Shown here: piece by piece, positions 7,466-40,020 of the stretch | How positions within the stretch are numbered: position 1 is the first letter of the stretch | Layout of the letters: every line of letters begins with the position of its first letter | Sequence record: PZ379180.1 | DNA length: 44,016 bases | From: a phage | Direction: 5' to 3' (one strand) | Notes under the pieces: generated by a model | The model's input: the letters and a program-made list of their open reading frames with translations, nothing else | Databases searched by the model: none | Told to the model about the DNA's origin: nothing | Made by a program: the position numbers and the translations under genes

Positions 7466-7491
7466 TTTCAGCCTCCTGTTTAAGTTAACTG

Positions 7492-7505
7492 AATAGTACC
7501 CTATT
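7492..7505. promoter_or_regulatory. palindromic operator-like site AATAG-N4-CTATT
   Basis: GAATAGtaccCTATTATGTTGG; member of a 6-7 copy family. Confidence 0.5.
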
Positions 7506-7573
7506 ATGTTGGTGTCCGCAAACTATTTGTTCACGTATTCCAGTTATTCCGCTCAATTGTAAATGTCGGAATA

Positions 7574-7616
7574 AACTATTCGAATAGTTGACTTTTCACT
7601 GAAAATGTGCTAAGCT
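7574..7616 (+). promoter_or_regulatory. sigma70-like promoter with adjacent 16-bp perfect palindrome
   Basis: AACTATTCGAATAGTT 7574-7589 overlapping -35 TTGACT 7588-7593; 17-nt spacer; TGcTAAGCT extended -10 at 7608-7616. Confidence 0.5.
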
Positions 7617-7796
7617 CCACCTGAGCTTGTGAAGTATGAACAAGCGACCGCGGCGCGGGCAGGTAACGGAGCGGGACGTAAGTCCTGAGTGTAGTTACGC
7701 TGACGCGTTCGGAAGGGCCATACTCTATTGCTTGTGTAAAAAGTAACTGGTTTACTGAGATTACGCCGTTTCTATGTTTAAATGATAAGGACTAGC

Positions 7797-7820
7797 GCCC
7801 CGCTTTAAGGCGGGGCTTTA
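7797..7820 (+). terminator. intrinsic terminator upstream of late genes
   Basis: GCCCCGC-tttaag-GCGGGGC hairpin followed by TTTACTT. Confidence 0.5.
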
Positions 7821-7840
7821 CTTATCGAGAAAGGAGAAAC

Positions 7841-8227
7841 ATGAATCTTAAAGCAACCGTCGTAGCAGGAGCATGTTTCATCATCCTGGCTTACACACAC
7901 GGCATTTATCAGTACCGCAGCGGCTGGAGCGAAGGCCGGGCGAATCTCGTTTCGCAGCAACAGCAGAAAGCGCAGGCTGAGTTAGCGAAGAAAACACAAC
8001 GGCAGCAGCAGGACGAATCAAAGGCCGCCGCCGCCGACAACGAAGGCAAGACGAAATCAGAGGTGATTACCCGTGAAGTCGTTAAGTACATTAAAACGCC
8101 TGGTCGCAGCGGGTGCACTTTTGACCCTGAGCGCGTGCAGCTCAAGTCCCGCGCCGTCGCAAACGCTAATTCCATTACCGGATACGACGATGATGCAGCC
8201 TCCGTGCAAACTGGCAGCGCCAAGTAG
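7841..8227 (+). CDS. i-spanin (Rz-like)
   Basis: N-terminal TM helix, Q/A/K-rich coiled-coil region; AAGGAG RBS; overlapped by lipoprotein ORF in another frame. Confidence 0.6.
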   Translation: MNLKATVVAGACFIILAYTHGIYQYRSGWSEGRANLVSQQQQKAQAELAKKTQRQQQDESKAAAADNEGKTKSEVITREVVKYIKTPGRSGCTFDPERVQLKSRAVANANSITGYDDDAASVQTGSAK

Positions 8228-8336
8228 CGATGCTGACGAGGATTTGGCTATAGACGTTCAGAACGCCGAATGCGTGCGGCAACTGCGTCTGAAAGTATTC
8301 CAGTTGCAGGATTATGTGAGGAATATTCTGGAATAG
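8073..8336 (+). CDS. o-spanin (Rz1-like lipoprotein)
   Basis: Lipobox LTLSAC after signal peptide, Pro-rich mature part, starts inside i-spanin gene in another frame; GTG start with AGAGGTGA RBS. Confidence 0.6.
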   Translation: MKSLSTLKRLVAAGALLTLSACSSSPAPSQTLIPLPDTTMMQPPCKLAAPSSDADEDLAIDVQNAECVRQLRLKVFQLQDYVRNILE

Positions 8337-8418
8337 TTGCCTTGCATGTTGGAATAATTTATTCTTGACATGTAAATCCGGGTGGCCCGGGTTCCGACGT
8401 CCAGGGGACATACTGACT

Positions 8419-9120
8419 ATGAATCGTTTTTTACGTTATCCGTTCCAGGAAAAAGCTGGGGCAGAAGATAAAGCTGGTGGCGGTGACGCGCCGAAAATGT
8501 TCACCGCTGAAGAAGTTCAGGCGCTGATTGAGAAAGAAGTTGCCGGGCTTAAGGCTAATCAGGAAGCATTGTTGGCGGAGAAGAAAGAAGCCGCTCGCAA
8601 AGCAAAAGAGGCCGAAGAAGAACGGCAGCGCGCGCACCAGGAGGCGTTAAAAGCCGCTGGTAAGATGGATGAGTTCGAAAAGACGATTCGTAGCCAGTAT
8701 GACCCGGTGTTAGCCGAGAAAGACGGTCGCATCTCCAGAATGGCAGAGCGTATCCTCGGCAGCGAACGTAAAGCGGTGCTAGGCTCTTTCGCGGGTGACT
8801 TTATTACCCCAGAAGCAGTGGACATTCTTGCGCCGTTCGTTAAGACTGAGTTCGAAGGCGATGATGTGGTTACTAAGTTTGTTGGTGCAGACGGTAACGT
8901 AATCACGACTGACCCGGAACAGTTCCGCAAATACCTGCGCGAACACAAGGCGTTTTCGCATTTGATCAAAGCAAATGCAGCTTCCGGCGGCGGGGCTTCC
9001 GGTAGCAAAGGCGGCGGGGCCGCACCAGCGTTTAAAGACATGAGTGAAGCAGAGCGTTTAGCCCTGTATAAATCGAACCCTGCCGAATTTGAACGGCAAC
9101 TTAAAGCCCTGAGGAAATAA
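8419..9120 (+). CDS. scaffolding protein
   Basis: Coiled-coil rich (QEALLAEKKEAARKAKEAEEERQ), directly upstream of major capsid gene; ATG 8419 with AGGGGA RBS (track ORF starts 8365). Confidence 0.6.
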   Translation: MNRFLRYPFQEKAGAEDKAGGGDAPKMFTAEEVQALIEKEVAGLKANQEALLAEKKEAARKAKEAEEERQRAHQEALKAAGKMDEFEKTIRSQYDPVLAEKDGRISRMAERILGSERKAVLGSFAGDFITPEAVDILAPFVKTEFEGDDVVTKFVGADGNVITTDPEQFRKYLREHKAFSHLIKANAASGGGASGSKGGGAAPAFKDMSEAERLALYKSNPAEFERQLKALRK

Positions 9121-9122
9121 TA

Positions 9123-10172
9123 ATGGCAATTACCACTATCGGCGATATCGTAACTGGCAACATCCTGGTCCTGGCGTCTTATATGACCGAGGACCCGGTA
9201 GAAAAAACCGCGTTCTTCCAGTCTGGTATTCTGACCCCGACCCCGTACGCTGCCGAGATTGCCCGCGGCCCGTCCAACGTCGCTAATATTCCGTTCTGGA
9301 AAGCGATTGATACCTCTATCGAGCCTAACTACTCGAACGATGTATACCAGGACATCGCCACCCCGCGTAACGTGCAGACCGGTGAGATGATGGCCCGCGT
9401 TGCATACCTGAACGAAGGTTTCGGTCAGGCGGATTTGACTGTCGAACTGACCAGCCAGAACCCGCTGCAATCCGTAGCGTCCCGTCTGGATAACTTCTGG
9501 CAGCGCCAGGCACAACGCCGTCTGATTGCTACCGCGCTCGGTCTGTACAACGACAACGTAGCTGCTAACGATGCTTACCACGAGCAGAACGACATGGTTA
9601 TCGACGTGTCTGCTACTCTGGGCTTCGATGCGGGCGCGTTCATCGACGCTACCCAGACTATGGGTGATGCGCTGATGGGCAACGGCGGTGAAGTGCTGGG
9701 TGCTATCGCGATGCATAGCTTCGTTTATGCGCAGGCACGTAAGCAGCAGCTTATCGACTTCATCCGTGGCGCGGACAACAACACCATGTTCGCCACCTAC
9801 CAGGGCTACCGCGTGATTGTTGACGACAGCATGACCGTAGTCGGCACTGGCCCGACCCGTAAGTTCATCTCCATCATCTTCGGCAACGGCGCTATCGGTT
9901 ACGGTGAAGGTTCTCCGTCCAACCCGCTGGAATACGAGCGCGAAGCGTCCCGCGGCAACGGCGGCGGCGTTGAAACCCTGTGGACCCGTAAGACCTGGTT
10001 GCTACATCCGTTTGGTTACAGCTTCACCAGTGCAGTAATCACTGGCAACGGCACCGAGACTACCCCGCGCTCTGCTTCCTGGCAGGACCTGGCGAACGCC
10101 TCCAACTGGAACCGTGTGGTTGACCGTAAGCACGTACCGATTGCCTTCCTGGTAACTGGTGACGGTGCTTAA
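9123..10172 (+). CDS. major capsid protein
   Basis: 349 aa ORF after scaffold, strong RBS GAGGAAA, followed by strong terminator. Confidence 0.8.
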   Translation: MAITTIGDIVTGNILVLASYMTEDPVEKTAFFQSGILTPTPYAAEIARGPSNVANIPFWKAIDTSIEPNYSNDVYQDIATPRNVQTGEMMARVAYLNEGFGQADLTVELTSQNPLQSVASRLDNFWQRQAQRRLIATALGLYNDNVAANDAYHEQNDMVIDVSATLGFDAGAFIDATQTMGDALMGNGGEVLGAIAMHSFVYAQARKQQLIDFIRGADNNTMFATYQGYRVIVDDSMTVVGTGPTRKFISIIFGNGAIGYGEGSPSNPLEYEREASRGNGGGVETLWTRKTWLLHPFGYSFTSAVITGNGTETTPRSASWQDLANASNWNRVVDRKHVPIAFLVTGDGA

Positions 10173-10188
10173 GGTTAAGATATAATCG

Positions 10189-10212
10189 AGAGGGACTTCG
10201 GTCCCTCTTTTC
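10189..10212 (+). terminator. intrinsic terminator
   Basis: AGAGGGAC-ttcg-GTCCCTCT hairpin followed by TTTTC. Confidence 0.55.
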
Positions 10213-10231
10213 ATTTACTAAGAGGTAAATT

Positions 10232-10531
10232 ATGGCTAAGACCGGAAAAGGCTTGCCTCGCAGCCTTCAGAATGTCGACTTCGGCGACTTTGACATCCCA
10301 GTAACGCCGGCTACTACCAGCGTAGTTGGTGGGGTTAAAAAGTCAGCTACTGTAGCCGCCCCCGCGGCCATTACCGCTGCCGCCGGGTCGCAGTCCGCTG
10401 CGGACCCGACTAAGACCGAGTTCGATGCCCTTGTAGCCGAGTACAACAAACTTCGAACTGATGTAACCGCGCTGCGCACTACCGTAGCAAATCTGTTGAC
10501 TGCGCTTAAAAATGCAGGAACTGTAAGCTAA
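10232..10531 (+). CDS. hypothetical protein (possible head decoration)
   Basis: Ala/Thr-rich 99 aa ORF with AAGAGG RBS. Confidence 0.4.
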   Translation: MAKTGKGLPRSLQNVDFGDFDIPVTPATTSVVGGVKKSATVAAPAAITAAAGSQSAADPTKTEFDALVAEYNKLRTDVTALRTTVANLLTALKNAGTVS

Positions 10532-10543
10532 AGGAGCTTAAAA

Positions 10544-10894
10544 ATGGTTGATGTAATCAAACGTCGTATTACTGGTGTTTCTGATGATTCTCCTGCCGAT
10601 GGTCAGGTTGAAATCGATATGGCGAATATCTCGCCCGCATCTTTTTCTACCGCACTTGCCGCTACCACTACCAAGTCTACGGGGCAGACGATGACTCTTA
10701 CCGTAGCCGTAACTGGCGGTCTGGCCCCGTACACATACCAGTGGTACAAAGATAACAACGCTATCCCAGGCGCTACCGCCGCCACCTACGAGAAAACTTC
10801 GCTCGCTACTACCGATTCCGGTACGTATAAAGTGGTTGTCCACGATGTATATGGTAATATTATCTCCAGCAGCACCGTAGCAACTGTATCTTAA
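10544..10894 (+). CDS. Ig-like domain protein
   Basis: TLTVAVTGGLAPYTYQWYKDNNAI...GTYKVVVHDVYG Ig-like segment; AAGGAG RBS. Confidence 0.5.
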   Translation: MVDVIKRRITGVSDDSPADGQVEIDMANISPASFSTALAATTTKSTGQTMTLTVAVTGGLAPYTYQWYKDNNAIPGATAATYEKTSLATTDSGTYKVVVHDVYGNIISSSTVATVS

Positions 10895-10930
10895 TACCGC
10901 GGCCCTTCGGGGCCGTAATAAGGAAAGGTC

Positions 10931-11110: not shown

Positions 11111-11113
11111 TTT

Positions 11114-12470: not shown

Positions 12471-12603
12471 AGCCGATTACAGCGTCGTTCCGAAGATGGG
12501 AGACAAGGTTCAGTTTAGCGGCGCGCAATGGTCTATCGTAGCTATCGAGACGAAGATGGTTAACGATGATGTCGTGGCATATTTTATTCAGGTGAGAAAA
12601 TGA
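12460..12603 (+). CDS. head-tail adaptor, C-terminal fragment
   Basis: +1 frame ORF, KMGDKVQFSGAQWSIVAIE resembles the C-terminal motif of head-tail adaptors. Confidence 0.4.
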   Translation: MIVKADYSVVPKMGDKVQFSGAQWSIVAIETKMVNDDVVAYFIQVRK

Positions 12604-12995
12604 GTTTCGCGCTTGATGTCTCTAAGTTCGTGGAAAAGGCGAAGAAGAACCCTGAGAAGGTGATGCGTCAGGTGTCTATCAAGCTGTTTTCCGCTATTAT
12701 AAAGGCGAGTCCGGTAGATACTGGTCGGTTTCGCATGAACTGGATGGCATCTGGTGGTACTCCTGCTTCCGGGATTACGGATGCTACGGATAAATCAGGA
12801 AACACAGCAACCGGAAACGCTACAAGTTTCGTGCTGAAAGCCACCGACTGGCATGAGTTCACGCTGACAAATAACCTGCCGTATGCACAACGGCTGGAGT
12901 ATGGCTGGTCGCAACAGGCCCCGCAAGGATTCGTCAGGACTAACGTGTCCCGCTTCCAGCAACTCATTAACGAAGAAGCTAGCAAGGTGAGATGA
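12600..12995 (+). CDS. head-tail joining protein (HK97 gp10-like)
   Basis: 131 aa, VDTGRFRMNW motif region typical of gp10-like proteins. Confidence 0.5.
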   Translation: MSFALDVSKFVEKAKKNPEKVMRQVSIKLFSAIIKASPVDTGRFRMNWMASGGTPASGITDATDKSGNTATGNATSFVLKATDWHEFTLTNNLPYAQRLEYGWSQQAPQGFVRTNVSRFQQLINEEASKVR

Positions 12996-13408
12996 TGGGC
13001 TACTTTGAGGACTTAACAAAAGCGTTTGATGTGCCGCTGGTAGCCTTCGGAACCACCAACGGCATCAAGGTAGCGCTTGAAAACATCGACGCGCCGACGT
13101 CAACAGATACGCCGTATCTGGCAAGTTACATGTTGCTGGCGGATACCGAGCAGGCTGACTTATTCTTCACGGAACAACGCGCCGGTGTCTATCAGATAGA
13201 CATTAACTACGCATCGGTGAAAGGTAGCGCGCCAATCAATAAAATGGCAGACTTACTTAACACGGCGTTTAAATCAGGTAAGGCATTTTCGCGTAACGAC
13301 ATCTGCGCCGAGGTTCAATCGGTTAGCCTGGGGCCGCTGATTGTAGAAAACGGATGGGCCAAACGACCATTGTCAATTAACTTTATTGCATTCACCAAGA
13401 GGCTGTGA
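12992..13408 (+). CDS. tail completion/terminator protein (putative)
   Basis: 138 aa ORF between gp10-like and major tail genes. Confidence 0.4.
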   Translation: MMGYFEDLTKAFDVPLVAFGTTNGIKVALENIDAPTSTDTPYLASYMLLADTEQADLFFTEQRAGVYQIDINYASVKGSAPINKMADLLNTAFKSGKAFSRNDICAEVQSVSLGPLIVENGWAKRPLSINFIAFTKRL

Positions 13409-17034: not shown

Positions 17035-17063
17035 TTGGTGTAAGTGAATAGTACGCTATTATA
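17035..17063 (+). promoter_or_regulatory. promoter-like element with AATAG-N4-CTATT palindrome
   Basis: TTGGTG-16-TATTAT with palindrome 17047-17060 in spacer; minus strand reads TATAAT at 17058-17063. Confidence 0.45.
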
Positions 17064-17748: not shown

Positions 17749-17964
17749 ATGCCCCCTGAGCTACTAACCACATTTGAGAAGTACAGGGAAATTAAATTCA
17801 CCCGCCGAGTGGACGACGACGGCATCAAGATGTACCCGCGCGAGCAATTACGATGGTCAGATTTAGTGGCGTACAGCACCGTTTCAGGCCAGAATATAGG
17901 GATGTTCGAATCCGACATCATCATGAGCTTAGACGCTATTTTCGAGGGTAGAAACGATGGCTGA
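17749..17964 (+). CDS. hypothetical protein, possibly distal part of chaperone frameshift extension
   Basis: 71 aa ORF overlapping tape measure start; frame open from 17683. Confidence 0.3.
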   Translation: MPPELLTTFEKYREIKFTRRVDDDGIKMYPREQLRWSDLVAYSTVSGQNIGMFESDIIMSLDAIFEGRNDG

Positions 17965-19036
17965 TGTAGCTAGTTTAGTAGTAAAAGTAACAGAGCAAGG
18001 CGCGAAAGCCACATCAGACCGTCTTGACAACCTTTCAAAGTCCGCAAAAGTAGCGGGGGCCGCCGTAGCAGGCCTTGCTTCTATCGTAGCGGCTACCGCG
18101 TATAAAGCTGCCCAAGAACTGGTTGACTCACAGCGGCAACTGGACAAGATGTCCGCCAGTTTGAAGACCTTAACAGGAAGTACCCAAGGTGCTAAACAGG
18201 CGCTAAGTATCCTGCAAGATTTTGCCCGCGATACCCCATACGGACTGGAGCAGGCGGTGGAAGGCTTCCGTAAGCTGGTGGCCCTTGGCCTTACCCCATC
18301 CGAGGAGGCGTTGCGGTCCTACGGCAATACCGCATCGGCTATGGGCAAGGACCTTAATCAGATGATTGAGGCGGTAGCCGACGCCAGTACGTTTGAGTTC
18401 GAACGCCTAAAAGAATTCGGCATCAAAGCCAAGCAGAACAAAAACGACGTAGAGTTTACATTCCAGGGGACAACAACCGTAGTTAAGAAAAGCGCTGCCG
18501 ATATTGAGCAGTATTTACTTAATATTGGTAACGTAAATTTTGCCGGTGCCATGGCGGACCAGGCCAACACCCTTAATGGCGCTATCGCGAGCGCCAGTGA
18601 CTCATGGTCGCAGCTAAAAATGACGCTTGCCACCAGTCTTGATGTTGGCGCACTTGCGGAACCTATCAGGTATATCAATGACTTGATCCAGGAATTAAAT
18701 GCGTCTGTTGCTTCCGGTGAATTAGCCGCTGAAATGCAGATGTGGGGGAACATCGCGTCGGAAGTAGGAAGCGCTATCGAGATGTCATTCGACGCTGCGT
18801 TTGGCTTTGTTGGCGATGCCATCAACGGGCTTAATGAACTGTGGGATTTCAGCAGCAAGAGTATTACGGATAGCGGAGAACAAACGGCTACTACCATCGC
18901 TGAATCCACCGCCGATGCGCTTGACTTCATCGCGGAAGAGTTCACCGCGATGGAGAGATTCTTTGAAGATATGGTTAAAGGCGCGCAGGACGCGGGCCGT
19001 CTTGTACGAGCCGCTTTTACCCCAGGGAATCAGTAG
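17957..19036 (+). CDS. tape measure protein, fragment 1
   Basis: Ala/Gln-rich helical 359 aa ORF after chaperone; frame breaks between 18979 and 19036. Confidence 0.75.
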   Translation: MADVASLVVKVTEQGAKATSDRLDNLSKSAKVAGAAVAGLASIVAATAYKAAQELVDSQRQLDKMSASLKTLTGSTQGAKQALSILQDFARDTPYGLEQAVEGFRKLVALGLTPSEEALRSYGNTASAMGKDLNQMIEAVADASTFEFERLKEFGIKAKQNKNDVEFTFQGTTTVVKKSAADIEQYLLNIGNVNFAGAMADQANTLNGAIASASDSWSQLKMTLATSLDVGALAEPIRYINDLIQELNASVASGELAAEMQMWGNIASEVGSAIEMSFDAAFGFVGDAINGLNELWDFSSKSITDSGEQTATTIAESTADALDFIAEEFTAMERFFEDMVKGAQDAGRLVRAAFTPGNQ

Positions 19037-19074
19037 ACGTAGCTAAAAATATCAACTTCCAGCTTGGCCTGGCT

Positions 19075-19371
19075 TTGGATACCCAGCGCGATGTCGCCGA
19101 CGTTACGCGTAAAAGTTTCCGCGAACAGGTAGAAGCTCAACAGGATATTGTAGCGTTAAAACGCGCGGCGTATGACATCGATAAGGAGTCCGCAAAAGCT
19201 GAGGGGTTAAACAAATTTAAGGTAACCGGAACTGGCGGCGGTTCTGACGATGACGGGTCAGCCGCAAAAGCTGCTAAGAAAGCGGCGGACGCGTTCGAGC
19301 GCCAGAAAAAGCGGCGGAAGACTTCTACTATCAGTCAATCCATCTTAATGATGACGTATTTCAGAAAATAG
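19075..19371 (+). CDS. tape measure protein, fragment 2
   Basis: -1 frame open from 18979 to 19371; breaks at A5 run 19306-19310. Confidence 0.6.
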   Translation: MDTQRDVADVTRKSFREQVEAQQDIVALKRAAYDIDKESAKAEGLNKFKVTGTGGGSDDDGSAAKAAKKAADAFERQKKRRKTSTISQSILMMTYFRK

Positions 19372-19400
19372 AAGCTAACCAGGAAGAGCAACTGTCTAAG

Positions 19401-20294
19401 TTGCAGGATTTTTATAGCAATAAGCTTCTTAGCGACCAACAGTACGAAAACGCCAAGACGCAGATTATGCTCTCTGCCGAACAGGCCCGCCAGGAAGAAC
19501 TGGACAAGAAAAGGAAAGAAGCCCAGGAGAAGCAGCAGAAAGGTGATGATTTCATGGCTCAGATTATGGGCCAGAACGCCACCGAGCTTGAGCTTCTGGA
19601 TATTCAGGAACAGCAGAAACTGGCGGTAGCCGATAAGTACCAGGAACAAGGTCTGATTAGCGAGAAGCAGTATCAGGCCGCGCTTAACGCCATCAACGAG
19701 CAGTACGCAACCAAGCGTGCCGACGCAACGGCAACAGCTTTCGGTAACATGGCTTCAAACATCGGGTCTGCGTTGGGCGAGGCTTCTGGTGCGTACAAGG
19801 CATTCGCTATCGTACAGGCCACTATAGCCACGTACACCGCAGCTATCGAGGCGTACAAGTCAACGGCTGCTATCCCTGTAGTCGGTCCGTTCCTGGCCCC
19901 AGTAGCCGCTGCTGCTGCTGTTGGGGCCGGTATGGCGCAGATTTCCGCTATCAGGTCAGCACGTGAACAGGGTGGACAGTTATCCGCCGGGCAGGCTTCC
20001 ACCATCGCCGAACGCGGTAAACCTGAGGTAATTATGCCGGCGGGGGCGTCGCGAGTACGCACCGCGCAACAAATGAAAGAGATTATGGGCCAAAACGGGT
20101 CTTCTTCCGGCCCATCTAATGTTACTATCGTAAACAACACGAGTTCGCAAATCGGCAACGTATCCACCGAGCAGGATGATGAAGGCCGTCTGCGTATCAT
20201 CATAGAAGAGCAAGTTGCTGCATCTTTGCAGAACAGCAACAGTAAGATTAGCAAGGCCCGCAAGGCCACAAGAAACGCGCCGGGGTTTAAATAA
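19401..20294 (+). CDS. tape measure protein, fragment 3
   Basis: Frame open from 19278; Q/E-rich coiled coil and hydrophobic AAIPVVGPFLAPVAAAAAVGAG segment. Confidence 0.7.
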   Translation: MQDFYSNKLLSDQQYENAKTQIMLSAEQARQEELDKKRKEAQEKQQKGDDFMAQIMGQNATELELLDIQEQQKLAVADKYQEQGLISEKQYQAALNAINEQYATKRADATATAFGNMASNIGSALGEASGAYKAFAIVQATIATYTAAIEAYKSTAAIPVVGPFLAPVAAAAAVGAGMAQISAIRSAREQGGQLSAGQASTIAERGKPEVIMPAGASRVRTAQQMKEIMGQNGSSSGPSNVTIVNNTSSQIGNVSTEQDDEGRLRIIIEEQVAASLQNSNSKISKARKATRNAPGFK

Positions 20295-28473: not shown

Positions 28474-29395
28474 TTACCGCCCCCATGAATGCCTTTATAA
28501 ATTCAGCAGCTACTTGCGGGACGATGGCATTGCCGTAACCGCGCAATCGTCCCACTCTGGCGGGTATCCCATCAGCCAGCGGGAATGTGCCGGGTTCAAC
28601 TGGCCTGAATTTTCCATCCCGGCATCCGAGCCAGTCTGCCTCTGACCAGAAGCCGTGATGCGGATTGGTCGCGATATTTTCAGTCCCTGCTCCGTTGAGT
28701 AGTCCAGCCTGTCGAAAGTCCGGTCCTTTCCGTCCTTGCGAATCACTGTCTCTCCGCTCCCTCTGTAATCGTTCGCGGTCGGCGTCGCCCATGCCGTCAT
28801 CGCGGCGGCCCACCCCAGTTTGTTCGGTTTCGTCCTGCCGTCTGTGCTGCGCATGTTCACGTCGTTTGTTATCAGTGATACTGCTGGCGTGGGCCAATCT
28901 ATGCGCGCCGAAGAAAAGTCGGTCGCGTTTGTGCGGTGCGCCGACGCTACAAGCTGGGAGTACGGCAAACCCGACGGCGTAGTTTTCTCCTTCCAGGTGA
29001 GTTTGTAAATCGCACATCCACGATTTTGCAATTGCTGGCGCAACCTGCTCCCCAAAGAGGACTGGAGGGCGGCACTCGCTGATGAGGTCGAGGAACACAG
29101 GTGCGAGGTGTCTCGGGTCGAACTGTCCGAGTTGCTTTCCCGCTGCGCTAAACGGTTGGCAAGGCGGGCTTCCCGTCCAGAGAGGCGCATCTTCCGGAAC
29201 TCCCGCAAGTCTGAGCGCGAGAGGCCAGCCGCCGATACCAGCGAAAAAATGACACTGGGTGAATCCGTCGAGGTCTTCTGGCTTAACTTCAGTAATGCTT
29301 CTTTCATCTACAACTCCAAAAGGTATGTGACCCTGTTTTATTAATTCACGCAGCCACGCGGCTGCGCCTTTATCCCATTCGTTGTAATAGTTCAT
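28466..29395 (-). CDS. DNA C5-cytosine methyltransferase (central third apparently out of frame)
   Basis: Motif I FAGIGGW, motif IV GSPPCQPFSAAG, motif VIII APHKRDRLFFGA, motif X GNAIVPQV in this frame; TRD and motif IX lie in overlapping frame 28510..29307. Confidence 0.75.
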   Translation of the reverse strand: MNYYNEWDKGAAAWLRELIKQGHIPFGVVDERSITEVKPEDLDGFTQCHFFAGIGGWPLALRLAGVPEDAPLWTGSPPCQPFSAAGKQLGQFDPRHLAPVFLDLISECRPPVLFGEQVAPAIAKSWMCDLQTHLEGENYAVGFAVLPACSVGAPHKRDRLFFGAHRLAHASSITDNKRREHAQHRRQDETEQTGVGRRDDGMGDADRERLQRERRDSDSQGRKGPDFRQAGLLNGAGTENIATNPHHGFWSEADWLGCRDGKFRPVEPGTFPLADGIPARVGRLRGYGNAIVPQVAAEFIKAFMGAVNE

Positions 29396-29583
29396 TTTGC
29401 CACCAGAACTAACTCTTTACGCCCGAACGCCGTAACGTTACCGGTTACATCTTCGATAACCAGTTTACCGTTCGACTCGACGTACACCGTATCAACGGCA
29501 ACAGGCCGACGGGTCTTAACGTTGAAAATCATGTCGCCAGGTACGATGTCACGTGCTGGTTTGCGGTCATATTCGTGTTTCAT
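29392..29583 (-). CDS. hypothetical protein
   Basis: 63 aa ORF with AAGGAA RBS downstream of promoter-like element. Confidence 0.4.
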   Translation of the reverse strand: MKHEYDRKPARDIVPGDMIFNVKTRRPVAVDTVYVESNGKLVIEDVTGNVTAFGRKELVLVAK

Positions 29584-29613: not shown

Positions 29614-29937
29614 CTAACTATAATAGTTCGCTATTAGGGCGTCAACCTGTTTAAACGAACCAACGACAAAAACATTAGCACCACGCTTACGCATCCGCTC
29701 GTGCTCCCGTAACTGGTGTGGATCCGGCTTCGTGCTTTCGTCTTTCTTTATCTCGACGAACCAGATGACGCCGCCAGGGAGAATTACCAGCAGGTCAGGG
29801 GCGCCGGAACGTCCTTCGTAGGAAAGTTTACGAACGAGGCCACCAATGGCCTCGAATCGGTCTTTTGCGTATTTCTGTATTTTGCCCTCAGGCGTACTCA
29901 TCCACACACCCCTCACGTTTCGTATGCGCAATACCAC
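29614..29937 (-). CDS. VRR-NUC domain nuclease (putative)
   Basis: PDLLVILPGG...FVEIKK resembles PD-(D/E)xK core of VRR-NUC. Confidence 0.5.
   Translation of the reverse strand: MVLRIRNVRGVWMSTPEGKIQKYAKDRFEAIGGLVRKLSYEGRSGAPDLLVILPGGVIWFVEIKKDESTKPDPHQLREHERMRKRGANVFVVGSFKQVDALIANYYS
29617..29645 (-). promoter_or_regulatory. promoter-like element with AATAG-N4-CTATT palindrome
   Basis: Minus strand TTGACG-17-TATAGT, palindrome 29622-29635 in spacer. Confidence 0.45.
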
Positions 29938-29982: not shown

Positions 29983-30114
29983 TCATTCCAGCACCCACAG
30001 ATAAATTGTTACTAACATACCTAATACGGCAACCATCATGCCGTATTGACCCTCGTGACAGTAGACACCGGCGGCGAATCCCGCCAGTACCGCAATAATC
30101 AGTTTACTTGGCAT
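29983..30114 (-). CDS. small membrane peptide (43 aa)
   Basis: Hydrophobic ORF MPSKLIIAVLAGFAAGVY..., below track cutoff. Confidence 0.25.
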   Translation of the reverse strand: MPSKLIIAVLAGFAAGVYCHEGQYGMMVAVLGMLVTIYLWVLE

Positions 30115-31492
30115 ATCGCTTCATCTCCGCACCTTCAGCTACAAGAGGGAACCCCTCCGCCCATTCCGGCAATTCGCACATCAACCGCTCAAGCTCTGCT
30201 ACATTGTATTCCGGTGAATCTGGTGTCTCGCAGATAATCTCATCGTGTACGTGAAGTACAATCGGGTAGCCGTTTGCTTCTACGTTCAGCAGGGCATTAG
30301 CCAGCAAATCACGGCACAATGCCTGAGTGCAGTTTTCCACCAGTTTACCCGAGTAGGTGTACTGGAACCCCCACTGACGGGTTAGCTGATTTTCGCCCTG
30401 GTACTTAATGCGCACGTTAGTAGACACCTTCCCGTCTCCATCTGTTTCTTTCGACACGCTCAACCCGACGCCCGGATAAGACATAACGCGACCCGACGGC
30501 AACGTCATGCGCAACCACCAACCAGCGACTTTGTTGCCGTTGTTGTCCGTTTCTACGTTACGCGAAAACTTAACACCCCGCGGTCCCGCAGTGAACTCTT
30601 TACCTGGATTGCGGATAGCCGCCATAGCCGCGTCTTCAATATCACGCCAGAAAGCTACTGTTTCCGGGTGTGACTCACGCCACATGCGCTTGATAGCGTC
30701 GCAGGTACGCCACACTTTCTTATCAAGAATATACGATGGTCGGTCATCCTTTTCACCTGGCCGCGGAGGTCGCTTGGCTTCCTGAATACGTGCCCATTCA
30801 TAGCCGCGTGCAGTAGCGGCCCATATATGGTTGGGGAATGTCCCGTCCATTGTTTTTGCCATATCAACCAGGTTTAAGCCGAGGTTCTTAGCAAACTGAA
30901 CGAAAGCACCGACACCACCAGCATAGCCAAGGCCCAATTCACATGCTTTACCTATCTGGCGTAGGTCACTACGGCTTTCGAGAATGTAATCAGGGTCCAT
31001 GCCGAACATCTTACCCGCGGTTACACAGTAAATATCCAATCCCGCACGGAAGGTATCGAGAGCGGTTTCTTCTCCCGCCAGCCATGCCAACCCGCGACCT
31101 TCAACGTTAGAGTAATCAGCTACGACAAACTTACGCCCGGCTTCCGGTATGATGCAGCTACGCACCGTCGATGCCGTTAGCTTGGCTACATCGAAACGGC
31201 GATGCGCGCGGCCTTTAAACAACAGGTCGATTCCGTAGGACAATGGGTGTGTTACCCTCCACCAGTCCTTCTCTGACATCCAGTCATAACGTACTTTCTT
31301 CTTTTTATTCTTCGGGTCGTCATGATAGTACCCGCGCGCCAGGTTCTGTGGCTGGAAGCCTTTACCCGCGAACCGTAACGTACGCTTTGCCCCACCGTAC
31401 TGGATACAACCGCGGCGTCGGTCGTCCGACGAGCGGCCTAACAGCAGCGGGTTATATTTCGTGGACGCTGTTGACGCGGCCCCGAGGCGCAT
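30104..31492 (-). CDS. DNA polymerase family A, polymerase-domain fragment
   Basis: Motif A VADYSNVEGRGLAWLAG, motif B RQIGKACELGLGYAGG, motif C LHVHDEIICE. Confidence 0.85.
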   Translation of the reverse strand: MRLGAASTASTKYNPLLLGRSSDDRRRGCIQYGGAKRTLRFAGKGFQPQNLARGYYHDDPKNKKKKVRYDWMSEKDWWRVTHPLSYGIDLLFKGRAHRRFDVAKLTASTVRSCIIPEAGRKFVVADYSNVEGRGLAWLAGEETALDTFRAGLDIYCVTAGKMFGMDPDYILESRSDLRQIGKACELGLGYAGGVGAFVQFAKNLGLNLVDMAKTMDGTFPNHIWAATARGYEWARIQEAKRPPRPGEKDDRPSYILDKKVWRTCDAIKRMWRESHPETVAFWRDIEDAAMAAIRNPGKEFTAGPRGVKFSRNVETDNNGNKVAGWWLRMTLPSGRVMSYPGVGLSVSKETDGDGKVSTNVRIKYQGENQLTRQWGFQYTYSGKLVENCTQALCRDLLANALLNVEANGYPIVLHVHDEIICETPDSPEYNVAELERLMCELPEWAEGFPLVAEGAEMKRYAK

Positions 31493-32370
31493 TTCGATAA
31501 TCGTGCGGGCGTCGTCAGGTAAATCATCATCGGTACCAGCAGGTCATTCAGCGTCGACTTCTGTGCGTTGTGTATGCGGTGTGCGGGGGCCAGTTCACGT
31601 AGAATAGGCAGAAAGTCCTTACCGGTAAGCGAGCCGCCGTATTTACGTTGAGCTTCTTCCTGTAACTGTGCCTTGTGCTTCTCTACGGCTTCAATCGCGG
31701 CTTCCGCCAGTGCGACGTCAACCTTAAATCCGCGGTCGTTGATTAACTGGTCAAGTTCCAGTACACGGTCTTCGAACTCGGAGTTACCCCAACGCGGCAG
31801 CTTATGGAAGACTTCACGCATCGCAGTGATGTCGCTCACGGCGTACCTGATGAACATCGCCCACTCGTCAGGGTGAGTTTCTGCGGTGTAGCGGCGGATT
31901 TTGTAGTTCTTCGGCGTCGGTTTAGAGAAACGCTTAATCAGAGCCTTGCCGCGTTTATCTTTCGCGTTGTCTGCAGACACGCCCAGCACTTCGCACAGCG
32001 CATCAAGAGAACCCGGCAGCGCGTGACGGAACGCCCAAATCATAGTATCAATGGTGTTACTTACCGGAATATCAAAGCCCCAGCAGTGTTTCATGATTAG
32101 GCGATCGAAAAGTCCACCGTTGTGCCATACCATCTTAATGCGACTGTTTGGCTTAACCAGACGGCGTAGAGCGCGGTGTAAATCCACGGGCATATCACTG
32201 CCGTCGGTGCAATCCCATACCTGTACAGGCTCGTCGTCAAAAGCGTAGGTACAGATAAGCACTTCGGTAGTTGGATGCTCGGCGTAAGCATAGGAGCCGA
32301 CTTTCTTCAAATCGGCTTCGGAGAATGTTTCAAAGTCTAAGTAAAGCAATGTGTTCATAGTCTGTACCAC
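31438..32370 (-). CDS. DNA polymerase family A, 3'-5' exonuclease-domain fragment
   Basis: Exo I motif LYLDFETFS; ORF overlaps the polymerase fragment by 55 nt in another frame. Confidence 0.8.
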   Translation of the reverse strand: MVQTMNTLLYLDFETFSEADLKKVGSYAYAEHPTTEVLICTYAFDDEPVQVWDCTDGSDMPVDLHRALRRLVKPNSRIKMVWHNGGLFDRLIMKHCWGFDIPVSNTIDTMIWAFRHALPGSLDALCEVLGVSADNAKDKRGKALIKRFSKPTPKNYKIRRYTAETHPDEWAMFIRYAVSDITAMREVFHKLPRWGNSEFEDRVLELDQLINDRGFKVDVALAEAAIEAVEKHKAQLQEEAQRKYGGSLTGKDFLPILRELAPAHRIHNAQKSTLNDLLVPMMIYLTTPARLSKCASGPRQQRPRNITRCC

Positions 32371-32651: not shown

Positions 32652-32674
32652 AAAAGGCCCAATGAAGGGCCTTA
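32652..32674 (-). terminator. intrinsic terminator
   Basis: AAGGCCC-aatgaa-GGGCCTT hairpin; minus strand followed by TTTTT. Confidence 0.5.
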
Positions 32675-32692: not shown

Positions 32693-33316
32693 TTAACGGC
32701 GGCGACGTTCGCGACGCGGTGCGTCTTCTTCGTCGTCTTCCAGGTCATCGACGCTTGCAGCTACTTTAGAACCACCGAACGCTTTACCTTCGCCTACGTA
32801 TTTAATCGCCAGCAGGTTAACGCCGAGGACTTTATATTTCTGGCTGAACCAGATTTCTACGCTTACGTTAGCAACGCAGCCGCTGTAAACCTGTTCACCT
32901 TCAATCTGTTCACCGTCTACATTGAAGTCCTGCTCTACCTGAGTCTCGCCTTTTTTAGAGGTTACAATCAGCGGTTGTTTCTGTGCCTTCGCTTTGAAGT
33001 AGAAGCCTTCCGGGAAGTCTTCAAACGGATTGTCGCGCTCGGCAATGTCTTTAATCGCGCATTTATCCATGTGCTTACCTTCACCGTAGTTGGACTTCAT
33101 CCATTTCTCGGCAGCGGCTGCGCCTAACGCTTCTTCAACTACAGCGTAAACGGTGTCGTAGAGTGCATCGATTTGAGCATGGTCAGACGGCAGGATGATA
33201 GTCGCGCTGTACTGGCCTTTAGTGATTGAGCCATCATCGTTTTCACGGTCTTTTTCACGTTCAAATACGTTAACCCATGCAGTGTTTACTTTACGCAGAT
33301 TCAGTTTAATACCCAT
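32693..33316 (-). CDS. ssDNA-binding protein (T7 gp2.5 / DUF2815-like, putative)
   Basis: 207 aa with acidic patch SVDDLEDDEED near C-terminus; position in replication operon. Confidence 0.45.
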   Translation of the reverse strand: MGIKLNLRKVNTAWVNVFEREKDRENDDGSITKGQYSATIILPSDHAQIDALYDTVYAVVEEALGAAAAEKWMKSNYGEGKHMDKCAIKDIAERDNPFEDFPEGFYFKAKAQKQPLIVTSKKGETQVEQDFNVDGEQIEGEQVYSGCVANVSVEIWFSQKYKVLGVNLLAIKYVGEGKAFGGSKVAASVDDLEDDEEDAPRRERRRR

Positions 33317-33384
33317 CGTGATTTCTCGCTTTTCAGTTTATATTTCAAAGTTTACTCCAGGAAGCTGCCCGGCCAGTGATTAGA

Positions 33385-33413
33385 ACTATAATAGCTAACT
33401 ATTCAGGTGTCAA
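33385..33413 (-). promoter_or_regulatory. promoter-like element with AATAG-N4-CTATT palindrome
   Basis: Minus strand TTGACA-17-TATAGT, palindrome 33390-33403 in spacer. Confidence 0.5.
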
Positions 33414-33447: not shown

Positions 33448-33603
33448 TTAAGCATATTGGTACGGTTCGAACTCATCCTCTACAGGGTAGTATCGCATCA
33501 TGGTACCGTTCAAGAACGTGAACGATTCCGAGTGTAGATACCCATCCCAGTGCCATACCATCAAAAAATCTTTATCAGTCGGCATTTCATTTACTTGAAT
33601 CAT
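33448..33603 (-). CDS. hypothetical protein
   Basis: ATG at 33603 with AGGAGG RBS (track ORF 33448..33633). Confidence 0.35.
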   Translation of the reverse strand: MIQVNEMPTDKDFLMVWHWDGYLHSESFTFLNGTMMRYYPVEDEFEPYQYA

Positions 33604-33920
33604 TCTAAATCCTCCTCTGTAACTTGATTCCACTCAGGACGTTTGTCATCCGCCGTTGCGACGCATGGCGCACCGGGCTTACGGGTAATGAAGTCTTTCA
33701 GTTCTTCTTCCGGTACAATTTTAACCGCTTCGGTCGGTGTCATAAGAACTACCTTTTGCAGCATAGTACCGTACTTCTCGAATACTGCATCGGTATCTTT
33801 CCACGCACGATTACCCGGGCGTCCTTCAACCAGTTTATACCCCGGCACTTTCTTACCGGAATGTAACGCAGCAGCCATAGCTTTCTCAACCTTGTCGATG
33901 TGCTGGCGCAACAACGGCAA
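33600..33920 (-). CDS. C-terminal part of Cas4-like nuclease (frame open up to about 34093)
   Basis: Same frame upstream encodes CQWCRFSEQC cysteine triad; C-terminus TEEDLE. Confidence 0.5.
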   Translation of the reverse strand: MPLLRQHIDKVEKAMAAALHSGKKVPGYKLVEGRPGNRAWKDTDAVFEKYGTMLQKVVLMTPTEAVKIVPEEELKDFITRKPGAPCVATADDKRPEWNQVTEEDLE

Positions 33921-34084
33921 CTTCTCATACTCAGCTACGAGTTGCTCTGGCGTAAGCTCAAGTGCAAAGTCGTCCTCCAGTTCTTCCGCCAGCCCCGCGT
34001 TAACGGTTTTTGTACGCGCTGCGCATTGTTCAGAGAACCGACACCACTGACAACCATCTACCGACGGCTTGAAGTCCGACGCTT

Positions 34085-34840
34085 TCAGGTTCTTTTACCC
34101 CGGAAATAGGCATCAAGAGCCAACAGCGCCCGTTTCTGTGCAAACTTAGCGAACAGTTCCAGACCTTCAACCGAGATGTCCCACTCCGATGCACCGCCAG
34201 CGTACGGCTGGAAGATGACCAGTCGAACGGTTGTTATGCTATAACGTCTCTTGAGTCGGCGATAAACGCCGAGAGCATAAAGCATAAGCTGCTTGTTTTC
34301 TTTCGCTTCGACACGATGCCGCCCGGTTTTCAGGTCGCAGATGATAAGCATGTGTTCGTCGGTGTTAGCCAGTTCCTGTATGGCAACAAGGTCAGCAGTT
34401 CCGAACGTCTCAACGCCTTCATACCCCGGATGCAATACCTCAGTAAGATTAACACGCATTTCCAGCTTGGCGTAAGTCGCTATATCGATAATCGCCTTGC
34501 AGTAGTCGGTGTACTTGCGCACCTGCTCAATCATGTCCGCCGTAATCAGTACCGCGCCTTTCATCGGGCTGATTAGTGCCTTAATCTGGCCTTTGCCTTC
34601 ATCCAGCACGTAAGCACCGACTTCACGCTCTAACGGCAGCGCAGTTCCGCGAATATAAGCGTTGAGATGGACCTCAGCTATGGTGTGCATTGCCGTGCCT
34701 AATACAGCGGCTTTACCTGACGTGTTAGGGGTATCTTTTTCACAGGCCAGTGATGCCGCGCAACTTAGCCACTTTTTAGCCCCTGACGGCGACAGTAAGG
34801 CATGTACATCGTTATTGCCGCCGCGTTCTTTAAGAATCAT
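34085..34840 (-). CDS. PD-(D/E)xK nuclease, Cas4/RecB-like (N-terminal part)
   Basis: ICDLKTG (D-x-K) and QLMLYALG (Q-x-x-x-Y) motifs; N-terminal Cys. Confidence 0.6.
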   Translation of the reverse strand: MILKERGGNNDVHALLSPSGAKKWLSCAASLACEKDTPNTSGKAAVLGTAMHTIAEVHLNAYIRGTALPLEREVGAYVLDEGKGQIKALISPMKGAVLITADMIEQVRKYTDYCKAIIDIATYAKLEMRVNLTEVLHPGYEGVETFGTADLVAIQELANTDEHMLIICDLKTGRHRVEAKENKQLMLYALGVYRRLKRRYSITTVRLVIFQPYAGGASEWDISVEGLELFAKFAQKRALLALDAYFRGKRT

Positions 34841-36021: not shown

Positions 36022-36249
36022 TTACTCGCCGTCGCCTTCTGTAAGGCTATCGTCTATTAATTCAAATTTACCGTTTGAGTGTTGGATAGCTTCTTGCCCG
36101 CAATGGTCGCAAACCACCAGTTTATCGAATCCGTCAAACTCGTCCCCGACTACGCAAGAAAGTACAAATTTATGTTTTGTACATACTTCTTGATGTTCAC
36201 CGAAAATTACCCGGAAACATTTAGTTATAGCTCCAGTGATTATGTTCAT
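36022..36249 (-). CDS. zinc-ribbon hypothetical protein
   Basis: CTKHK...CDHCGQ cysteine pairs; first gene downstream of leftward promoter; GAGGTG RBS. Confidence 0.4.
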   Translation of the reverse strand: MNIITGAITKCFRVIFGEHQEVCTKHKFVLSCVVGDEFDGFDKLVVCDHCGQEAIQHSNGKFELIDDSLTEGDGE

Positions 36250-36277: not shown

Positions 36278-36307
36278 ACTATAATAGCGAACTATTCATG
36301 ATGTCAA
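36278..36307 (-). promoter_or_regulatory. leftward promoter with AATAG-N4-CTATT palindrome
   Basis: Minus strand TTGACA-18-TATAGT, palindrome 36283-36296 in spacer. Confidence 0.5.
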
Positions 36308-36371
36308 TGGGCTTTTCTAAAATAATTAATATGGTACTATTCACACATCAACTGACTAAGGAGTAATTGAC

Positions 36372-36587
36372 ATGCAACCATCCGAACTAGGCATCCGTGT
36401 AGAGCAACGCCGTAAAGAACTCGGCATCTCCCAGCGCCGTCTGGCGGTCCTGACCGGCGTTTCCCAGGGCGCAATTAACCAGCTGGCTCTCGGTGTAACT
36501 CAGGACGTCCGCCCGGCAACGTTGTTTAAACTGGCGGAAGTGCTGGAAGTAGACGCTAAGTGGCTGGCGTTCGGTGAAGGGGCTTGA
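36372..36587 (+). CDS. XRE-family HTH regulator (Cro/CI-like)
   Basis: LGISQRRLAVLTGVSQGAINQL helix-turn-helix; AAGGAG RBS; divergent from leftward operon. Confidence 0.75.
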   Translation: MQPSELGIRVEQRRKELGISQRRLAVLTGVSQGAINQLALGVTQDVRPATLFKLAEVLEVDAKWLAFGEGA

Positions 36588-36603
36588 CGCCCCTTTCTTT
36601 TTA
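36577..36603 (+). terminator. intrinsic terminator
   Basis: AAGGGGC-ttgac-GCCCCTT hairpin followed by TCTTTTTA. Confidence 0.55.
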
Positions 36604-39062: not shown

Positions 39063-39119
39063 GTTGTATTTCCTTCAGCAAGTAATTTGGCCTCGGCGCT
39101 CTAACGTCGGGGCTTTCTT

Positions 39120-39353
39120 TTATTCCAGGTCTTCTAAAGTAGCGGTAATCCCGCGAACTTCAGCAAAGGCACTATATTTCCCGCCAACATTTTTCACGAC
39201 GCCAGATTTAACCAGCACTTTTAACGACCCTTCAATAATGACGGAACTATAGTACTTAAAATAACTACGGCGCAAGTCGATAACACTGCATGACCCTTTT
39301 TTACGTGTTAACGAAACGACCGCCGTAAATACGCGTGACTGGAACTCTGTCAT
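39120..39353 (-). CDS. hypothetical protein
   Basis: 77 aa ORF, C-terminus LEDLE. Confidence 0.4.
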   Translation of the reverse strand: MTEFQSRVFTAVVSLTRKKGSCSVIDLRRSYFKYYSSVIIEGSLKVLVKSGVVKNVGGKYSAFAEVRGITATLEDLE

Positions 39354-39553
39354 TTCACATTCTCCTTAATCCACGCTTCCACTTTCTCTGGGTCAAACGT
39401 ACCTGGCTGACGACGGCCCATAATGCGAATACAGCAATCAGGGAACTTCCCACTCTTTAGCCAGTTATTCAGCGTTCGACGAGTAACCCCAATACGCTCA
39501 GCTACCTCATTCTGCGTCATTCTCAAACCCTCATTATCAGTTAACGGAATCAA
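39350..39553 (-). CDS. HTH DNA-binding regulator (AlpA/Xis-like, putative)
   Basis: MTQNEVAERIGVTRRTLNNWLK helix-turn-helix; first gene of leftward operon. Confidence 0.55.
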   Translation of the reverse strand: MIPLTDNEGLRMTQNEVAERIGVTRRTLNNWLKSGKFPDCCIRIMGRRQPGTFDPEKVEAWIKENVK

Positions 39554-39769
39554 GTATACATTGCGAATAATGGGAAATCAAACATAATCGCACCTATTGA
39601 CATTATGAAAATATTCGTTTAAGGTGCTTCTATATCTTAGTTACTTTGATTCCTGTTCACCTTGTAATACCCGCTTGAAACGCAGCTGCGCCAAAGCGCA
39701 AGCGAAGTGTTAAGCGGCAGATTATTGAACATATGAATTATCGTAACTTTCCTTCCTTAGTATCTTAGG

Positions 39770-39782
39770 TTGCCGTGGGCAA
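39770..39782. repeat. 13-bp palindromic site TTGCCGTGGGCAA (copy 1)
   Basis: Inverted half-sites TTGCC/GGCAA; identical copy 71 bp downstream. Confidence 0.5.
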
Positions 39783-39840
39783 GCTCCATTCTCATCGGCA
39801 GCATATCTCTTAAATACCTGATAATTAAAAGTTTCTATAG

Positions 39841-39853
39841 TTGCCGTGGGCAA
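39841..39853. repeat. 13-bp palindromic site TTGCCGTGGGCAA (copy 2)
   Basis: Identical to copy 1, both preceded by TAG and followed by G; half-site TTGCCGTGG again at 40441-40449. Confidence 0.5.
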
Positions 39854-39877
39854 GGTAGAGAGTACTTCACTCCGCTG

Positions 39878-39897
39878 GGGTGGGCTAACGCCCACCC
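39878..39897. other. GC-rich hairpin
   Basis: GGGTGGGC-taac-GCCCACCC, no adjacent T-run. Confidence 0.35.
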
Positions 39898-39972
39898 ACT
39901 GCGTTGCGTACTCTTTTAAGAAACGAAAGAATCACAACGGCAACGTAACTATTCTCTTGCACACCCCAACAT

Positions 39973-39986
39973 AATAGGATACTATT
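39973..39986. promoter_or_regulatory. palindromic operator-like site AATAG-N4-CTATT
   Basis: Minus strand reads GAATAGtatcCTATTATGTTGGGG, near-identical to copy at 7491. Confidence 0.45.
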
Positions 39987-40020
39987 CACTTATCGAAACG
40001 AGACAGAGGAGTGAGGGTTA

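Follow-up and report, generated by a model that had tools for sequence, protein, structure and literature searches.

The palindrome AATAG-N4-CTATT recurs at nearly all early promoters of a virulent E. coli phage, PZ379180.1 (the whole 44-kb stretch that was analysed is hereafter referred to as the window). On balance, we lean towards the view that this palindrome is the operator of a repressor resembling phage 434 Cro, encoded by the same phage, and that the two would form a Cro-type regulon on early and middle promoters. The sites, their enrichment, the pattern of their conservation, their registers within promoters, and the family and distribution of the protein were observed directly and are described below; binding, dimerization, repression, and timing are what we infer from them.

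The window represents nearly the whole genome of a virulent, K1G-like siphovirus that belongs to the genus Kagunavirus (subfamily Guernseyvirinae). Its replication region shows 98.7% identity to that of the Escherichia phages BEU33 and BEU35, and its structural region 94% identity to that of fEg-Eco06. The gene map was transferred from fEg-Eco06, an annotated relative, and the relevant proteins of the window were checked directly. The structural and lysis genes lie on the plus strand and three blocks of replication and nucleotide-metabolism genes on the minus strand, while small genes form a further block that starts near 40,020 and extends rightward across the window end into the window start. 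The coding fraction of the genome is about 91%.

Occurrence and placement of the palindrome

AATAG-N4-CTATT occurs in seven exact copies in the window, as compared with 0.03 expected, and seven or more copies were found in none of 100 shuffled sequences. When one mismatch was allowed, the number rose to 11 sites (1.13 expected), and the added sites, at 4732, 7583, 36328, and 43488, are all intergenic. In an unbiased scan of all inverted repeats with 5-nt arms and spacers of 0–10 nt, this palindrome ranked first in the window. With its flanks, the element has the 16-bp form T/G-AATAG-N4-CTATT-A. Six of the seven exact sites are wholly intergenic, and the other, at 29622, overlaps just the final codons of the VRR-NUC gene.

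An earlier sequence-only reading of this DNA had listed six copies, and an exact AATAG-N4-CTATT was found at every one of these positions; the copy at 36328–36341, which it had called degenerate, differs from the palindrome by one mismatch. The list overlooked a seventh exact copy (41040–41053) and the weaker sites that overlap −35 elements. The motif search that it had proposed for the genome and its relatives gave enrichment in the window, in fEg-Eco06, and in the Jerseyvirus Ent1. It had also named an equal frequency of the motif inside coding sequence as an observation that would speak against an operator; in the annotated genomes, no exact site was found deep within a gene. The possibility that the palindrome acts as an RNA or DNA hairpin was considered and rejected, because the stems are too weak: as RNA, the copies form hairpins of only 5–6 bp with −0.9 to −2.5 kcal/mol.

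The sites are listed below, together with the promoters on which they lie and the genes that these promoters would serve. The exact copies on promoters are referred to as putative operators A1–A3 and B1–B3.

29622..29635, minus strand: A1, in the spacer of TTGACG (29645–29640)-17-TATAGT (29622–29617); Ent1 ortholog at 27946; targets, 29392..29583 and the cytosine methyltransferase, helicase, and toprim genes
33390..33403, minus strand: A2, in the spacer of TTGACA (33413–33408)-17-TATAGT (33390–33385); Ent1 ortholog at 32156; targets, the DUF2815 gene (32693..33316) and the DNA polymerase gene
36283..36296, minus strand: A3, in the spacer of TTGACA (36307–36302)-18-TATAGT (36283–36278); divergent from cro; targets, 36022..36249 and the genes downstream
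7492..7505, minus strand: B1, over the −10 of TTGCGG (7521–7516)-17-TACTAT (7498–7493); target, the N6/N4 DNA methyltransferase gene (6584..7465)
17047..17060, minus strand: B2, over the −10 of TTGCAC (17076–17071)-17-TACTAT (17053–17048); Ent1 ortholog at 15735; targets, the superinfection-immunity-like, DNA repair exonuclease, PNK, and dNMP kinase genes
39973..39986, plus strand: B3, over the −10 of TTGCAC (39957–39962)-17-TACTAT (39980–39985); orthologs at Ent1 37906 and TS6 872; target, the rightward small early genes, with the first ATG about 34 nt downstream
41040..41053: orphan exact copy without a recognizable −35, at the 3′ end of the gene 40845..41033; kept in Kagunaviruses
7583..7596, plus strand: one-mismatch copy AATAGTTGACTTTT, over the −35 of TTGACT (7588–7593)-17-TGcTAAGCT (7608–7616)
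43488..43501, plus strand: one-mismatch copy ACTAGTTGACTATT, over the −35 of TTGACT (43493–43498)-17-TATATT (43516–43521)
36328..36341, plus strand: degenerate copy AATATGGTACTATT, overlapping the extended −10 of the cro promoter, TGgTACTAT (36332–36340)
4732..4745, plus strand: one-mismatch copy TATAGTATGCTATT, directly past the portal-gene terminator; membership uncertain

Registers of the palindrome within promoters

Based on the position of the palindrome relative to the −10 and −35 elements, the promoters can be grouped into several classes. In class A (29622, 33390, and 36283; minus strand), the palindrome fills the spacer of TTGAC(A/G)-17/18-TATAGT and is centered at about −18.5, its final T being the first base of the −10. 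These promoters rank in the top four promoter-like matches of the right-hand 18 kb (26–44 kb), and the layout that the sequence-only reading had described holds for all three. In class B (minus-strand sites 7492 and 17047 and plus-strand site 39973), the −10 hexamer of TTGCAC/TTGCGG-17-TACTAT is itself the promoter-proximal half-site, and the center lies at about −12.5. In class C (7583 and 43488; plus strand), one-mismatch copies cover the −35 TTGACT and are centered at about −33.5. A single promoter layout, as had been claimed, is not what is seen: the promoter-associated sites all lie within −40 to −6 of promoters resembling those of sigma-70, in at least four registers, and the orphan at 41040 has no promoter. 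All of the class A and B promoters, and with them six of the seven exact sites, have a Shine–Dalgarno (SD) sequence and an ATG 27–68 nt beyond the −10. The promoter of the operon containing the HTH_17 gene (described below) and the helicase-primase gene, TTGATT (39581–39576)-17-TATACT (39558–39553), carries no palindrome.

The orientation of the class B sites requires a comment. The copies had been said to point the same way as the genes downstream of them; for 7492, 17047, and 39973 this has to be reversed, as the −35 (TTGCGG or TTGCAC) lies on the opposite side, and so do the nearest SD and start codon, 27–42 nt away. The consensus tail ATRKTT that had been read at these sites is the promoter spacer on the other strand. 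Hexamer matches leave the automated strand call ambiguous (7/12 for the chosen strand and 8/12 for the opposite one), and a start codon within 45 nt of the −10 is found in the chosen orientation only. Our strand assignment was made because TTGCAC is conserved and an SD and ATG are near. The class B promoters may nevertheless be used bidirectionally; at Ent1 15735, two overlapping divergent promoters have one operator in common.

Three of the remaining sites have further features. The promoter at 7583 points toward the spanin, scaffold, and capsid genes, and its site corresponds to AATACTTGACTAAT in TS6. The same −35 and the 7583 site are overlapped by a perfect 16-bp palindrome of the inverse arrangement, CTATT-CG-AATAG (AACTATTCGAATAGTT, 7574–7589). 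The copy at 36328, on the cro promoter, is possibly a weak autoregulatory site. As for the orphan at 41040, a terminator hairpin (41067–41088) begins 13 nt past it.

Conservation of the palindrome among relatives

To follow the palindrome beyond the window, 75 IMG/VR loci were used, which had been picked for resemblance to the Cro-like protein, without regard to the motif. AATAG-N4-CTATT ranks first among inverted repeats in both fEg-Eco06 (8 copies) and Ent1 (4 copies), and in the protein-selected Kagunavirus and Jerseyvirus loci it ranks first, alone or jointly, among palindromes. When the region upstream of cro was aligned, again without selection by the motif, the two half-sites of A3 proved invariant among 34 distinct Kagunavirus sequences, and six forms of the central 4 bp were seen. 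In Ent1, perfect copies were found at four orthologous promoters despite diverged flanks. The frame over the −35 at 43488 is also kept in Jerseyviruses, as AATAGTTGACTAGT; the imperfect half switches side between the two genera (ACTAG...CTATT in Kagunaviruses and AATAG...CTAGT in Jerseyviruses).

The TS6-like phages have no AATAG-type site. In the same frame and at orthologous promoters, TS6 carries instead ATTAG-N4-STAWT, in 5 copies as compared with 0.14 expected. This variant also occurs in the four TS6-like loci that lay outside the definition of the pattern (L048–L051), and no ATTAG-type site was found in 918 kb of Kagunavirus and Jerseyvirus loci. The TS6 sites had first been framed as TATTA-N6-TAATA, with the bases swapped mirror-symmetrically relative to the Kagunavirus operator; this framing was abandoned, because weaker TS6 copies did not fit it. 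The 5-N4-5 framing yielded the ATTAG pattern that held in the four further loci.

Invariant half-sites with a variable center are the pattern that would fit a dimer contacting two half-sites. These conservation patterns suggest symmetric recognition by a dimer, and neither sigma-70 contacts nor RNA structure can account for them. The earlier proposal of a palindromic operator, a dimeric regulator, and a regulon of many promoters gains good support from the comparison, namely from the invariant half-sites, the free N4, the conservation across genera, the variant at orthologous promoters of TS6-like phages, and the positions in core promoters.

The genes that follow the conserved promoters are variable. 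Among the Kagunaviruses, at least five different genes occur first after A3 (here 36022–36249), and B1 is followed by the N6/N4 DNA methyltransferase gene (6584–7465) in the window and by a small hypothetical gene in fEg-Eco06. As these first genes differ between phages, the cassettes composed of a promoter and a 5′ untranslated region (5′-UTR) mark mosaic junctions.

This variability bears on a reading in which the element has no dedicated binder: it would be a promoter module, or a promoter/5′-UTR cassette spread by recombination, and its symmetry would be a by-product of AT-rich hexamers resembling the −10. Each half-site does resemble a −10 (TACTAT, TATTAT), and class B can be read as a promoter on both strands, as described above. 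The repeat itself has already been published under such a label. In the fBC-Eco01 paper, seven "phage RNAP promoters" with the consensus tgAATAGTa-ccTATTat-T were ascribed to a phage-encoded RNA polymerase (PMC9825357), and in the Golestan paper the same 20-mers, including the copy at 4732, were listed as PHIRE promoters (PMC7203180). The predictions in both papers come from PHIRE, with seven copies per genome. The operator reading differs from this label. We found no paper that treats the element as an operator or tests it, nor transcriptomic data or a precedent in a virulent phage.

A gene for a phage RNA polymerase (RNAP) was sought among the annotations. None is annotated among the 76 coding sequences of fEg-Eco06 or the 58 of Ent1, and the ten largest open reading frames (ORFs) of the window encode tail, terminase, DNA polymerase, helicase, or primase domains or have no Pfam domain, with an RNAP domain in none. 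Because no such gene was found in these records or ORFs, the "phage RNA polymerase" label is unsupported, and the phage-RNAP promoter was rejected as a reading. Promoters of phage RNAPs are oriented and stand at a fixed distance from the start, unlike the present element, which is palindromic, in several registers, and once without a promoter. Sigma-70 does not read the spacer, yet the distal half-site of class A is invariant amid variable neighbors, and the TS6-like phages retain the symmetric frame with an altered half-site. A module without a binder is improbable. A comparison was also made with the PeSL cassettes of T4, in which an early promoter and a stable stem-loop flank shuffled genes: different first genes follow A3 and B1 here, and the palindrome gives a hairpin of 5–6 bp only.

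Candidate DNA-binding proteins

The sequence-only reading had named two helix-turn-helix (HTH) proteins as candidate regulators:

36372..36587, plus strand: Cro-like gene (cro), 71 amino acids (aa), Xre/HTH_3 family; SD AAGGAG 8 nt upstream of the ATG
39350..39553, minus strand: HTH_17 gene (AlpA/Xis-like), the rival candidate binder; the true start is probably the ATG at 39520

Both were confirmed as members of HTH families. The former is favored by our analysis and the latter disfavored, being missing where sites persist. The Cro-like protein matches PF01381 (HTH_3) at residues 11–65 with 47.2 bits (cut-off 23). Its best match in the PDB by phmmer is phage 434 Cro (1zug/2cro/3cro), which also has 71 aa (E = 2.1e-6; residues 6–68 against 4–64), followed by the 434 repressor and P22 C2. 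434 Cro is a dimer, and its 14-bp operators, ACAA-N6-TTGT, have conserved outer bases and an uncontacted center.

Three features concern the distribution and the setting of the gene. One is that a Cro-like protein was found in all of the Kagunavirus (94–100% identity), Jerseyvirus (49–51%), and TS6-like (41–43%) loci, and of the two HTH candidates it alone occurs in all three lineages. Another is that cro is divergent from an operator-bearing promoter in the three lineages alike; in the window, the gene on the other side encodes a 75-aa product without an assigned function, and the intergenic region contains one perfect and one degenerate site only. The last feature is that cro is small and monocistronic, with an extended −10 promoter of its own and a bidirectional terminator (36576–36597).

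Several points weigh against the assignment of the palindrome to this protein. The recognition helices differ (SQGAINQ in Kagunaviruses, SQSLITH in Jerseyviruses, and TQSAISH in TS6) though Kagunaviruses and Jerseyviruses share the motif, and a clean covariation of residue and base was not seen across the three lineages. The TS6-like variant pattern was defined post hoc, and the switch to it is effectively one evolutionary event. At 36328, Jersey phages retain just the half that overlaps the −10 (ATTACTGTACTATT), and the operator function of this copy is uncertain for that reason. The HTH_17 protein is more similar between Kagunaviruses and Jerseyviruses (81–85% identity), which have the exact motif in common, than the Cro-like protein is, and it is missing from the TS6-like group, the lineage that lost the AATAG form. 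A NinH-like DNA-binding protein (777..1037) is also present in all three lineages, and a host factor might be the binder instead.

These points can be gathered into a reading in which the palindrome is a true operator with a different binder: HTH_17, the NinH-like protein, another small phage protein, or a host factor that E. coli and Salmonella share. The palindrome-free promoter of the HTH_17 operon is what would be expected for an upstream regulator, and after the phylogenetic profile HTH_17 was for a time taken as the better candidate. It was downgraded because two Kagunavirus loci, L033 and L006, lack HTH_17 and its neighbor gene and nevertheless keep Cro and, respectively, 6 and 3 exact palindromes. 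In both, unrelated genes replace HTH_17, which may reflect recent gene swaps; in L033, the place of HTH_17 and its neighbor, upstream of the helicase-primase gene, is taken by genes for two proteins, one of 149 aa and one, Cys-rich (zinc-ribbon-like), of 47 aa (12559–13144). At orthologous promoters, the TS6-like phages keep the element in an unchanged frame, though all of them are without HTH_17. Direct repeats rather than palindromes are usually bound by small HTH_17 proteins that have no dimerization helix, and no informative structural relative of this one was found. As for the NinH-like protein, its identities (57% in Ent1 and 67% in TS6) do not track the operator variant. Taken together, a binder other than the Cro-like protein seems rather unlikely.

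HTH_17 also figures in a reading in which a promoter-bound antiterminator of the lambda Q/AlpA type would load at the palindrome and permit read-through of intrinsic terminators in the early operons. HTH_17 belongs to the AlpA/Xis-like group, and terminator-like hairpins do lie within operons, for example in the gap between the DUF2815 and DNA polymerase genes (inverted repeat at 32654; the Ent1 equivalent is annotated as a terminator) and after 41040. Some Q binding elements, moreover, sit between the −35 and the −10. Such a site would be marked by a fixed register and by co-occurrence with HTH_17, whereas at least four registers relative to the −10 cannot be reconciled with a fixed loading geometry, one copy lacks a promoter, and phages without HTH_17 have kept the sites. 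The variable register argues against a promoter-loaded antiterminator, and against an activator too. We regard the antiterminator reading as highly improbable.

Comparison with known repressors

The Cro-like protein resembles 434 Cro as a 71-aa single-domain HTH_3 protein that aligns over nearly its full length, and the sites resemble 434 operators as 14-bp pseudo-palindromes with conserved outer half-sites, an inner A-G/C-T, and four variable central bases, which in 434 are uncontacted. As in the 434 switch, the sites overlap core promoter elements, where binding would be expected to repress, and cro is divergent from a promoter that is putatively regulated. The differences are also clear. 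The half-site is AATAG and not ACAA(G/T), and the sequence identity is low (E = 2e-6). No CI partner and no tripartite OR1–3 cluster were found, the cro gene being flanked by one perfect and one degenerate site; single operators are instead scattered over at least 6–10 promoters of a 44-kb virulent genome. The fEg-Eco06 and Ent1 records contain no annotated CI or S24-peptidase repressor, and the combination that characterizes a lambdoid bistable switch, a divergent CI with three adjacent operators, was not found at the cro locus of the window.

Homologs in other phages carry palindromes of similar design. In the temperate loci L053 and L054, TAAAG-N4-CTTTA occurs four times around a CI-type repressor gene (1878–1937 and 3942–4010). 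The HTH of this repressor is homologous to that of the window protein (45% identity), and the repeated 5-N4-5 palindromes lie directly upstream of the repressor gene. The L053/L054 repressors, which belong to lysogeny modules, carry a C-terminal S24 peptidase (LexA-like) domain, whereas the window protein is a bare HTH domain in a phage without integrase or CI. In L067, TGTAG-N4-CTACA occurs three times (9878–10322) beside the gene for a 133-aa distant homolog of the Cro-like HTH. The L053/L054 and L067 homologs provide this HTH subfamily with useful natural variants in specificity. As a type of system, an HTH repressor with palindromic promoter operators is nothing out of the ordinary; the mildly unusual points of the proposed one are its presence in a virulent phage without a CI partner and the spread of single operators over about ten promoters in several registers.

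Proposed regulation

If the Cro-like protein is the binder, regulation might proceed as follows. The phage, for which no RNAP gene was found in the annotations and ORFs described above, would be transcribed by the host RNAP at sigma-70 promoters. Each early or middle promoter would hold one operator in its core, either in the spacer beside the −10 or on the −10 itself, and weaker one-mismatch copies would lie on the −35s of two rightward promoters (7583 and 43488) and on the cro promoter (36328). Binding of a Cro-like dimer to the −35, the spacer, or the −10 would be expected to occlude the RNA polymerase. As Cro accumulates, the operons for replication, nucleotide metabolism, and host takeover would be turned down; the perfect operators would be hit first and the imperfect ones perhaps later.

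A bolder version of the same idea makes the Cro-like protein a genome-wide governor, with operators on essentially every promoter but that of the helicase-primase operon. At divergent regions (17047; Ent1 15735), one direction would be repressed and the other permitted or stimulated, and the protein could silence the genome in a carrier or pseudolysogenic state, in phages now regarded as strictly virulent and employed in therapy and biocontrol. We consider this extension quite improbable.

Other features of the genome

The 8-mer ACGGCAAC/GTTGCCGT occurs in 22 copies in the window (1.67 expected), on both strands, mostly within genes and with variable flanks; its positions include 1950, 9093, 11517, 19728, 29495, 33914, 39769, 39840, and 39937. 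It is enriched in fEg-Eco06 (23), Ent1 (15), and TS6 (14) as well, and a role as a signal for replication, primase, or recombination is conceivable. A non-coding stretch of about 450 nt (39554–40010) separates the HTH_17/helicase-primase operon from the rightward early promoter; in it, an inverted-repeat unit, TTGCCGTGGGCAAG, occurs twice (39770–39783 and 39841–39854) and a third ACGGCAAC is found at 39937. This stretch is a candidate replication origin with iterons.

Two features were noted in the leaders of early genes. Downstream of A2, the 5′-UTR of the DUF2815 gene (33317–33384, minus strand) contains a hairpin, CCGGGCAGCTTCCTGG, with a minimum free energy of −6.5 kcal/mol for the whole leader; the surrounding atcactggccgggcag is conserved in Kagunaviruses, Jerseyviruses, and TS6, and the hairpin is possibly a translational operator of the SSB-like protein DUF2815. 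The other is a common leader motif, AACGAGA(G)G/ACACCAAC. AACGAGA(G)G recurs just upstream of the SD in several early-gene leaders, including those of A3, B3, and the 43488 promoter, and in TS6 too, and ACACCAAC lies at most 20 nt from three operators (7508, 17034, and 29602; minus strand).

The fEg-Eco06 homolog of the product of 361–546 is labelled "RNA polymerase inhibitor similar to 2LMC_A" (T7 Gp2). This label found no sequence-level support from phmmer against the PDB or from Pfam, and the PHROG family has no assigned function; a Gp2-like inhibitor would be odd where the phage relies on the host RNA polymerase. Finally, small indels relative to fEg-Eco06 break four genes, those for portal, tape measure, DNA polymerase, and PD-(D/E)XK nuclease, into 2–3 ORFs each (3219–4701, 17957–20294, 30104–32370, and 33600–34840). 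These splits are probably sequencing or assembly errors of the record PZ379180.1 and not biology.

Implications

Kagunavirus and Jerseyvirus phages belong to the most often isolated of the coliphages and Salmonella phages that have been put forward for use in therapy and food biocontrol, and we found no experimental study of their transcription programme. The present analysis provides a testable map for it, consisting of about ten promoters of the sigma-70 type with a single operator sequence and a single candidate repressor, and it corrects the published annotations that credit the repeat to a phage RNA polymerase, a gene for which was not found in the records and ORFs examined. If the proposed regulation is true, the operator/Cro pair would explain the early-to-late timing across the subfamily. 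It would also be a compact orthogonal repressor/operator pair, for which the TS6-like phages supply a natural specificity variant (ATTAG). The question would then be raised whether a global repressor permits transient silent carriage in phages that are classed as strictly virulent.

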